Origin: a virus
DNA length: 64,000 bases
Virus record (IMG/VR): IMGVR_UViG_3300045988_146982
Location: 1,038-65,037 of that record
Strand: one strand, 5' to 3'
Both the position numbers and the translations under genes were made by a program. The notes beneath the pieces are model-generated. The model had not been told where the DNA came from. It made no database searches and saw nothing but the letters and a program-made list of their open reading frames with translations. This document shows, piece by piece, positions 58,846 through 58,954 of the stretch; the stretch's first letter is position 1, and each line of letters starts with the position of its first letter.

Positions 58846-58954
58846 TCCGAAAGGCAGGAATCGAACCTGCTTCTTGTGGGGTAATGAGACCTATATATAT
58901 AAAGAATATGATTATTATTAAATACCACATACATTCCAATAATGCTACTTTCGG
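58846..58954 (-). ncRNA. tRNA-like RNA (109 nt): perfect cloverleaf arms with a 45-nt AT-rich anticodon loop or insert
   Basis: CCGAAAG TA GCAT TATTGGA ATGT A TGTGG [45 nt] CCACA AGAA GCAGG TTCGATT CCTGC CTTTCGG A. Confidence 0.6.

Follow-up and report, generated by a model that had tools for sequence, protein, structure and literature searches.

The release of RNAs from longer transcripts by tRNA-processing enzymes has precedents in mitochondrial tRNA punctuation, in the tRNA-like parts of the tRNA-miRNA-encoded RNAs (TMERs) of murine gammaherpesvirus 68 (MHV68), which are not aminoacylated, and in the C4 RNA of phages P1 and P7, which RNase P processes from the immI operon transcript and whose loops differ among close relatives. 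RNase P and RNase Z read the acceptor/T minihelix and the elbow of a substrate and not its anticodon, and the discriminator and top half are also read by the CCA-adding enzyme. Here we describe a tRNA-like element, TLE1, in a 64,000-nucleotide (nt) stretch of DNA, hereafter the window (IMG/VR virus record IMGVR_UViG_3300045988_146982, positions 1,038 to 65,037; all coordinates below are those of the window). The window belongs to a temperate Bacteroides phage of lambdoid layout, 93% identical to Bacteroides phage BS-TP2 over the region. Judged from sequence comparison, TLE1 is a real, conserved phage tRNA-like RNA with a putative function: we read it as a non-decoding mimic of the tRNA top half and a putative RNase P/RNase Z processing cassette in the early transcript, with a probability that we put somewhat below one half (roughly 0.45).

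The element and the insert that sets it apart from a tRNA are as follows.

58846..58954, minus strand: tRNA-like element 1 (TLE1), defined by its sequence, by ARAGORN with introns allowed, by our own finder and by covariation against the BS-TP2-type copies

58880..58924, minus strand: 45-nt A+U-rich hypervariable insert ('cargo') replacing the 7-nt anticodon loop, defined by alignment and diversity

The 7-bp acceptor stem of TLE1 (CCGAAAG, 58954-58948, with CTTTCGG, 58853-58847; 7/7 paired) is followed by U8 and A9, by a D arm GCAT-TATTGGA-ATGT (58945-58931) whose first pair is G.U, by an anticodon-type stem TGTGG/CCACA (58929-58925 and 58879-58875), by a variable loop AGAA of 4 nt, by a T arm GCAGG-TTCGATT-CCTGC (58870-58854) with a canonical T loop and G53-C61, and by the discriminator A at 58846. 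All four stems of the cloverleaf are present together with the D-loop GG and the UUCGAUU T loop, that is, the nucleotides of the tRNA elbow; position 14 is U where the canonical base is A. An alternative 7-bp anticodon helix is possible (TGT-GGTA with TACC-[CC]-ACA, leaving a CC bulge), and it corresponds to the unbroken 7-bp TGTAAGC/GCTTACA of the BS-TP2 copy. The sequence carries the features of an RNase P and RNase Z substrate: an acceptor/T minihelix with elbow, a single-stranded leader and trailer, and no encoded CCA. An earlier description of this DNA, made from its letters and open reading frames (ORFs) and called here the sequence-only reading, had given the arms, loops and discriminator on the minus strand exactly as we find them, and was correct in labelling the element tRNA-like and unusual for a bacterial tRNA. 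It had also placed the start context of the next gene 14 nt further on; the gap is there, and measures 13 nt from the discriminator to TATACGATTATG.

Among standard tools, ARAGORN allowing introns, a check that the sequence-only reading had proposed, is the sole one to call TLE1, as a tRNA-Lys(ttt) with a 38-nt intron. Default ARAGORN missed it and called only a tRNA-Val (42421-42493) in the window, and an Rfam scan of 58846-58954 gave no tRNA match even at E<=10 (gathering threshold 29 bits). Our own finder ignores the anticodon and requires 7/7 acceptor pairs, U8, a D arm with GG, 5/5 T-stem pairs with G53/C61, and a T loop of the form [TG]TC[AG]ANN. It returned three matches in the window, all on the minus strand, and none in 200 composition-preserving shuffles searched on both strands; the cloverleaf of TLE1 is therefore real, far beyond chance. 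Its folding energy is not distinctive (z = -1.4) and the minimum-energy fold lacks the anticodon stem; the structure is supported by the comparison with relatives and not by thermodynamic folding alone.

This comparison draws on a pattern scan of IMG/VR, which found TLE1 in more than 119 contigs. Its seven variants fall into two main types, the window type and the BS-TP2 type, with flanks about 90% identical between them. From the one to the other, acceptor pairs C1-G72 and C2-G71 become U-A and A-U, GG/CC of the anticodon-type stem becomes AA/UU, a C-G pair of the T stem becomes U-A, and the G.U of the D stem becomes G-C. When TLE1 is aligned with the BS-TP2-type copies, 95.8% of cells are paired, compared to 37-56% in slid controls; five pairs have changed on both sides, with compensatory change in 3/4 helices, a covariation that rests on essentially two lineages. 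The stems, whose fate in related phages the sequence-only reading had singled out as decisive, are kept with compensatory changes. It had also considered that the N-terminal part of ORF 58638-58934, which runs into the element, might be translated. This extension is non-coding: BS-TP2 has four stops in the same frame, and the homologues start at 58823. One recombinant IMG/VR contig (L086, element at about 3740-3849) joins a window-type 5' half and insert to a BS-TP2-type T arm and 3' acceptor strand, which reflects either recombination inside the element or tolerance of some loss of pairing.

The insert measures 38-47 nt across readings and variants, 38 nt being the intron of ARAGORN and 45-47 nt the distance between the strands of the anticodon-type stem. 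It is the most variable stretch of the region: in 51 haplotypes its nucleotide diversity (pi) is 0.101, and 53% of its sites vary. For comparison, pi is 0.042-0.062, about half as high, at third codon positions of three neighbouring ORFs, and 0.040 in the TLE1 body. Over the elements, pi is 0.013-0.040 in the bodies as against 0.069-0.101 in the inserts.

TLE1 has two companions of its kind in the window and belongs to a large and diverse set in related phages, which the sequence-only reading had overlooked. Both companions are missed by default ARAGORN and by an Rfam scan at gathering thresholds.

58481..58562, minus strand: tRNA-like element 2 (TLE2), found by the Rfam tRNA model (37.5 bits, permissive filters only), our own finder and relatives

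54448..54565, minus strand: tRNA-like element 3 (TLE3), found by our own finder, sequence and fold

TLE2 has a full tRNA body in which a 16-nt loop, UUGCGCAACCAAUUGG, replaces the anticodon loop and consists of two overlapping 8-nt palindromes, TTGCGCAA and CCAATTGG. It occupies a syntenic position upstream of a small-protein/LuxR-type gene pair; in two divergent loci (L129 and L135) the acceptor stem differs from that of TLE2 on both strands, and the loop is kept. TLE3, which comes after the recombination and SSB genes, has a type II-like D arm and an abnormal middle region of 66 nt, and is followed by a terminator-like hairpin.

For a wider view, the LuxR-type protein served as an anchor to collect 21 prophage loci from GTDB species (Bacteroides, Parabacteroides, and metagenome-assembled genomes labelled Prevotellaceae and Tannerellaceae) and 80 IMG/VR loci. 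ARAGORN with introns and our own finder reveal dozens of distinct tRNA-like bodies in these loci. In a table of 53 distinct tRNA or tRNA-like calls, the acceptor is 7/7 and the T stem 5/5 in almost all, T loops resemble TTCGANT, the discriminator is mostly A (T in a minority) followed by C, and middle regions span 37-156 nt; Rfam also matches elements of just 67-68 nt, whose middle is truncated. In the 21 prophage loci our finder detects 26 elements, every one of them on the operon strand, and 25 ARAGORN calls agree. Most loci hold a tRNA-like element at one syntenic position, about 350 nt before the LuxR-type gene; the bodies found there are unrelated to each other, and the next start codon lies 21-30 nt downstream. 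Only a few calls are ordinary tRNAs (Arg-TCT, Gly-CCC). CCA is not encoded in the true tRNAs of these loci either, which makes the RNase Z/CCA route the normal one in these hosts. BS-TP3 carries an unrelated element with a 44-nt loop (Rfam, 53.9 bits).

Some middle regions are elaborate. A tRNA-like unit is nested inside the anticodon region at L126:5245-5419 and L137:5572-5725, and at three other loci (L155, ~9600-9730-type; L124:9600-9730; L141:12025-12155) the inner unit is circularly permuted, with T arm, mini acceptor hairpin and D arm in that order on a 12-bp helix. This 'double-elbow' RNA is, by analogy, reminiscent of the tRNA-like domain of the bacterial Y RNA YrlA. No Rfam family covers the elements, apart from weak matches of the tRNA model to some sister elements. 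A blastn search of the phage collection with the elements as short queries returned no match within the E-value limits applied, an outcome that carries no information when identity is about 75% over 110 nt, and our literature search, whose coverage is incomplete, found no description of them.

All three elements of the window are preceded, at a distance of 6-15 nt, by a conserved and covarying structure.

58961..59041, minus strand: motif-90, a conserved structured RNA, found by blastn and RNAalifold

58578..58606, minus strand: GNRA-tetraloop hairpin (GUGA), copy 1; 13 distinct copies, pi = 0.007

54573..54600, minus strand: GNRA-tetraloop hairpin, copy 2; a different stem with the same inner stem-loop

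Motif-90, which is 81 nt long, overlaps the stop codon of a 62-aa membrane ORF (59215-59027) and ends 6 nt before TLE1. Copies identified by blastn (L125:5163-5255, L126:5078-5170, L129:5478-5570, L130:5491-5583 and L131:5588-5680) led RNAalifold to a structure of 20 pairs, 7 of them compensatory, with an inner region that holds a different short palindrome according to the phage (GTGCAC, AGTACT, AGCGCT); Rfam gave no match at E<=10. In L129 and L130, motif-90 is directly followed by the GNRA hairpin and a tRNA-like element. For this reason TLE1 and the coiled-coil ORF that comes after it look, on this alignment of loci, like a cassette added in the BS-TP2 lineage. The GNRA hairpin has an 8-bp outer stem, a 4-bp inner stem and a GUGA or GCGA loop, and 5/12 pairs show compensatory change. 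Copy 1, with a U run behind it (58577-58571), stands 15 nt before TLE2; copy 2, without a U run, stands 7 nt before TLE3. Eleven further copies occur in L123-L142, always a few nt upstream of a tRNA-like element. As to its role, a terminator, a 3'-end protector and a nut/boxB-like site are all candidates.

The elements belong to the early operon on the minus strand, which diverges from an S24-peptidase repressor gene on the plus strand (61206-61865) and encodes a WYL_2/DUF2693 Sm-like protein, small ORFs, a LuxR-type helix-turn-helix protein, Erf, an exonuclease, SSB and NinG. TLE1 sits in a non-coding gap of this operon, between the 62-aa membrane ORF and the coiled-coil ORF. Three neighbours matter here.

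58638..58823, minus strand: 61-aa coiled-coil ORF; its homologues BS-TP2 gp20 and BS-TP3 gp32 start at the same ATG

58227..58454, minus strand: 75-aa ORF of the small-protein family, recognised by synteny and sequences; starts 26 nt past TLE2

59494..59542, minus strand: DUF2693-FD RNA (Rfam RF02926), 75.2 bits against a gathering threshold of 44.5

The ATG of the coiled-coil ORF (58823-58821), in the context TATACGATTATG, lies 22 nt past the TLE1 discriminator, and the start codons downstream of TLE1 and TLE2, at 22-26 nt, share the context ACGATTATG. This 9-mer, start codon included, occurs 11 times in the window compared to 0.65 expected (minus strand: 60156, 59563, 59221, 58829, 58213, 44682, 43633, 43117, 42395 and 25580; plus strand: 26939). 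In the early region its copies stand at gene starts, and one copy follows the tRNA-Val (42421-42493) by 26 nt, the same spacing as after the tRNA-like elements. Such a shared translation-start context is unusual in a host group whose initiation does not depend on Shine-Dalgarno pairing.

A member of the small-protein family (64-80 aa) comes after the syntenic position in most related prophages, always between the tRNA-like element and the LuxR-type regulator (in the window, and among ORFs at -245..-20 of the LuxR-type gene in L123-L142). Its members share the C-terminal pattern ..Y.[VI]S......G...[VI][VI][RK]N. and have no Pfam or PHROG match. In the operon, the DUF2693-FD RNA comes after the WYL_2/DUF2693 gene (59824-60150; WYL_2 Pfam match, 2.6e-24) and an 83-aa ORF (59567-59818). 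It is composed of a 7-bp stem, a mini hairpin and a 5-bp/7-nt hairpin, and then A-C as in the tRNA-like elements. A 10-codon ORF (MQRTTALRTD, from 59557) with the ACGATTATG start context overlaps the 5' half of this RNA.

Of the options raised by the sequence-only reading, that of a tRNA-shaped processing signal fits this anatomy best, and we infer the cleavage itself from shape and position. Host RNase P would cut at the 5' end of a tRNA-like element, so that the upstream mRNA would end in a conserved protective structure (motif-90 or the GNRA hairpin). RNase Z would cut past the discriminator and leave the downstream mRNA with a short, unstructured leader of 22-26 nt before the conserved start context. 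The operon would thereby be split into separately stable and translatable pieces, with a stable tRNA-like RNA released as a by-product. A processing cassette suits the data because the top half is constant, the elements are co-oriented and intergenic, protective structures stand upstream and short leaders downstream.

Several points weigh against this processing model. TLE3 precedes a terminator-like hairpin and not a gene, and some relatives (L123, L128) have tandem pairs of elements; operon-end and tandem elements suggest that the RNAs are products in their own right, beyond being places to cut. Punctuation could be achieved with a plain hairpin or an ordinary tRNA, and elaborate nested inserts fit it poorly as the sole role. 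Punctuation also leaves unexplained why the insert is about twice as variable as third codon positions, and why the 16-nt loop of TLE2 is kept across divergent phages. As for the structure, U14 and an A15/A48 pair are not the canonical core contacts of a tRNA, pair 3-70 is broken in the BS-TP2 type (a U3-U70 mismatch), and the recombinant L086 has a weakened acceptor stem.

Some of these same points speak for the next most plausible explanation, which we nevertheless regard as unlikely: the element would be a tRNA-scaffolded functional RNA or a sponge, the body providing processing and stability, and the variable insert or the body being active. The partner, a factor of the host or of the phage, could for example be the Sm-like WYL_2/DUF2693 protein, an RNA targeted in trans, or an enzyme that recognises the tRNA body, whether a tRNA-directed defence nuclease or a modifying enzyme. 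The excess of insert variation is what an arms-race specificity determinant should display, the TLE2 loop is conserved as its stems covary, relatives have elaborate inserts (permuted in L155, L124 and L141, nested in L126 and L137), tandem and operon-end elements resemble RNA genes, and the operon holds both an Sm-like protein gene and the DUF2693-FD RNA. Defence systems whose cuts in tRNAs fall outside the anticodon have been reported (PMC13096335). However, the TLE1 insert is A+U-rich with little predicted structure, inserts have no general complementarity to neighbouring transcripts, and anticodon regions ranging from truncated to 150 nt are also expected from neutral drift. An anticodon nuclease requires an anticodon loop; none is present, and the decoy for such nucleases proposed by the sequence-only reading is for this reason unlikely in that form. 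In a broader and equally doubtful version, temperate phages of Bacteroidales would possess a large undescribed repertoire of tRNA top-half scaffolds with hypervariable functional cargo (small RNAs or aptamers), released by host tRNA-processing enzymes and acting on factors of the host or of rival phages, for instance as sponges for tRNA-directed defence enzymes or as partners of the Sm-like DUF2693 protein; TLE1 would be one of them. We give still less credit to a decaying pseudo-tRNA with a destroyed anticodon loop, or a DNA-level feature, kept by hitch-hiking or as a recombination point for module exchange. The poorly constrained insert, the L086 recombinant of window-type 5' half and BS-TP2-type 3' half, and the resemblance of TLE1 and the coiled-coil ORF to an inserted cassette relative to L129/L130 would agree with it, but stems are maintained by compensatory changes, the body varies about as much as third codon positions or less, the strand bias is 26:0, G.U pairs function on the sense strand only, a syntenic position is held by unrelated bodies across Bacteroides and Parabacteroides, and intact copies persist in the more than 119 metagenomic contigs. 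Slightly less probable again is an antisense regulator, in cis or trans, of the 62-aa membrane ORF, comparable to P1/P7 C4 RNA or a type I antitoxin, in which the insert released by RNase P would pair with nt 109-139 of the ORF. The window insert (58880-58924) can form a 26-bp duplex including G.U pairs with 59077-59107 (codons 37-46; -25.1 kcal/mol, equalled in 1/300 shuffles), and the BS-TP2 insert has its best site at the same place. This duplex was tested post hoc, that of the BS-TP2 type is weak and lacks significance (62/300), a scan over +-600 nt gave p = 0.27 for TLE1, complementarity to local targets is not enriched over 27 elements, and homologues of the membrane ORF occur without TLE1; we keep the duplex as a weak lead.

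Least probable, and already largely refuted, is a true decoding tRNA from which the 38-45-nt insert is spliced out, or an aminoacylated tmRNA-like molecule. ARAGORN with introns does build a tRNA on removing 38 nt, a YTCAT near the 3' end of the insert in all class A variants offers a possible CAU, and transfer-messenger RNA (tmRNA) is a precedent for the charging of an anticodon-less tRNA-like RNA. However, ARAGORN gives nearly identical variants different anticodons (Lys ttt, Met cat, Stop tta, Gln ctg, Pyl cta) and different 'intron' positions; position 33 of the anticodon loop that it draws is A and not U, and the CAU reading gives a pyrimidine at 37 in a loop that is not closed. A scan for bulge-helix-bulge motifs found none at the insert, and its matches, all in the D-arm region, are at the level of chance, with 52-83% of shuffles having them too; to our knowledge, bacteria have no tRNA splicing endonuclease. 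Group I introns of bacterial tRNAs exceed about 200 nt, possess a P1-P9 core and reside in the anticodon loop. At 38-47 nt the insert is far too short for any of them, and Rfam has no intron family match at TLE1, so a group I intron was rejected. The intron-bearing tRNA that the sequence-only reading had entertained is abandoned on the same grounds: unstable anticodon, A33, no bulge-helix-bulge motif, and an insert of 38-45 nt that is not group I. The first acceptor pairs drift between close relatives (C-G to U-A), which argues against a fixed synthetase identity. As for tmRNA, its G3-U70 is lacking here: the window type has G3-C70 and the BS-TP2 type U3-U70. The Rfam tmRNA model matched only the bare T arm, at 11.6 bits against a gathering threshold of 84. 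A permuted tmRNA ('tmRNAp') was called only at the relaxed ARAGORN setting -ps90; it spans TLE1 and TLE2 and reuses the C-terminus of an ORF as its tag. We rejected it as an artefact of the relaxed threshold: TLE1 and TLE2 each have a complete acceptor stem, and neither has G3-U70.

Three other possible roles of the locus were considered. A sigma-70-type promoter scan of the insert gave chance-level matches only, and no Bacteroides -7 box (TAnnTTTG) was visible by eye. An attP or tRNA-derived attachment site, whose core would need an exact match to a host tRNA, was rejected: TLE1, whose stems covary, is flanked by small ORFs of the early operon. Pairing of the insert elsewhere in the window was also rejected, the longest exact complement being a 14-mer inside ORF 36272-36565, away from its start codon and equalled in 3/100 shuffles, which we take as chance.

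If the processing model is true, abundant phages of the human gut would cut and tune their early operon by means of the tRNA-maturation enzymes of their host, and would provide a bacterial counterpart of mitochondrial tRNA punctuation and of herpesvirus tRNA-like units. The elements evade default tRNA finders and Rfam, and are therefore unannotated in more than 100 public phage contigs; TLE1 is moreover covered by a spurious ORF extension. Their diverse inserts of fast turnover, nested units included, raise the possibility of a natural tRNA-scaffold display system for small RNAs, which, if real, would be relevant to phage-host conflict and to RNA engineering in Bacteroides. Two more conserved structured RNAs without Rfam match lie nearby, close to the uncharacterised DUF2693-FD RNA and an Sm-like gene, so this early region makes a compact test bed for phage RNA biology.

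Comparison with described systems places TLE1 near several of them. It has the 7-bp acceptor, U8, G18G19 D arm, 5-bp T stem with G53-C61, UUCGAUU loop, 4-nt variable loop and discriminator A of a canonical tRNA (RF00005), with no encoded CCA; it differs in the 45 nt that stand where a tRNA has its 7-nt anticodon loop, in the lack of a stable anticodon, in U14 (A14 in tRNA), in first acceptor pairs that drift among close relatives, and in the absence of an Rfam match at E<=10. TMERs and mitochondrial punctuation offer the same principle of tRNA-shaped units in longer transcripts, cut by host tRNA-processing enzymes to free the flanking RNAs. Both are eukaryotic: TMERs have a normal anticodon arm and release microRNA hairpins, mitochondria use working tRNAs, and processing of the phage elements is predicted. 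C4 antisense RNA is likewise a small structured RNA co-transcribed with phage regulatory genes downstream, but it is not a cloverleaf, TLE1 has no Rfam C4 match, and the elements taken together showed no significant target complementarity.

Both tmRNA and YrlA are mimics of the tRNA top half in which other RNA replaces the anticodon arm, and the nested permuted unit of L155, L124 and L141 has the strand order of YrlA. TLE1 lacks the G3-U70, tag frame and pseudoknots of tmRNA, with no Rfam match beyond the bare T arm, and it ends at the acceptor stem and not, as YrlA, at a Ro-binding helix. Ponchon and Dardel reportedly engineered a tRNA scaffold for recombinant RNA expression; in this artificial design, foreign RNA sits at the anticodon stem of a tRNA body that ensures processing and stability, as the putative cargo of the natural elements would. 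The DUF2693-FD RNA (RF02926) is a separate family of 49 nt with no T-loop consensus and no anticodon-type stem, which shares with TLE1 the operon, the strand and the phage group, and whose 7-bp terminal stem, 5-bp/7-nt hairpin abutting the 3' strand and subsequent A-C draw the minimal outline of a tRNA top half.

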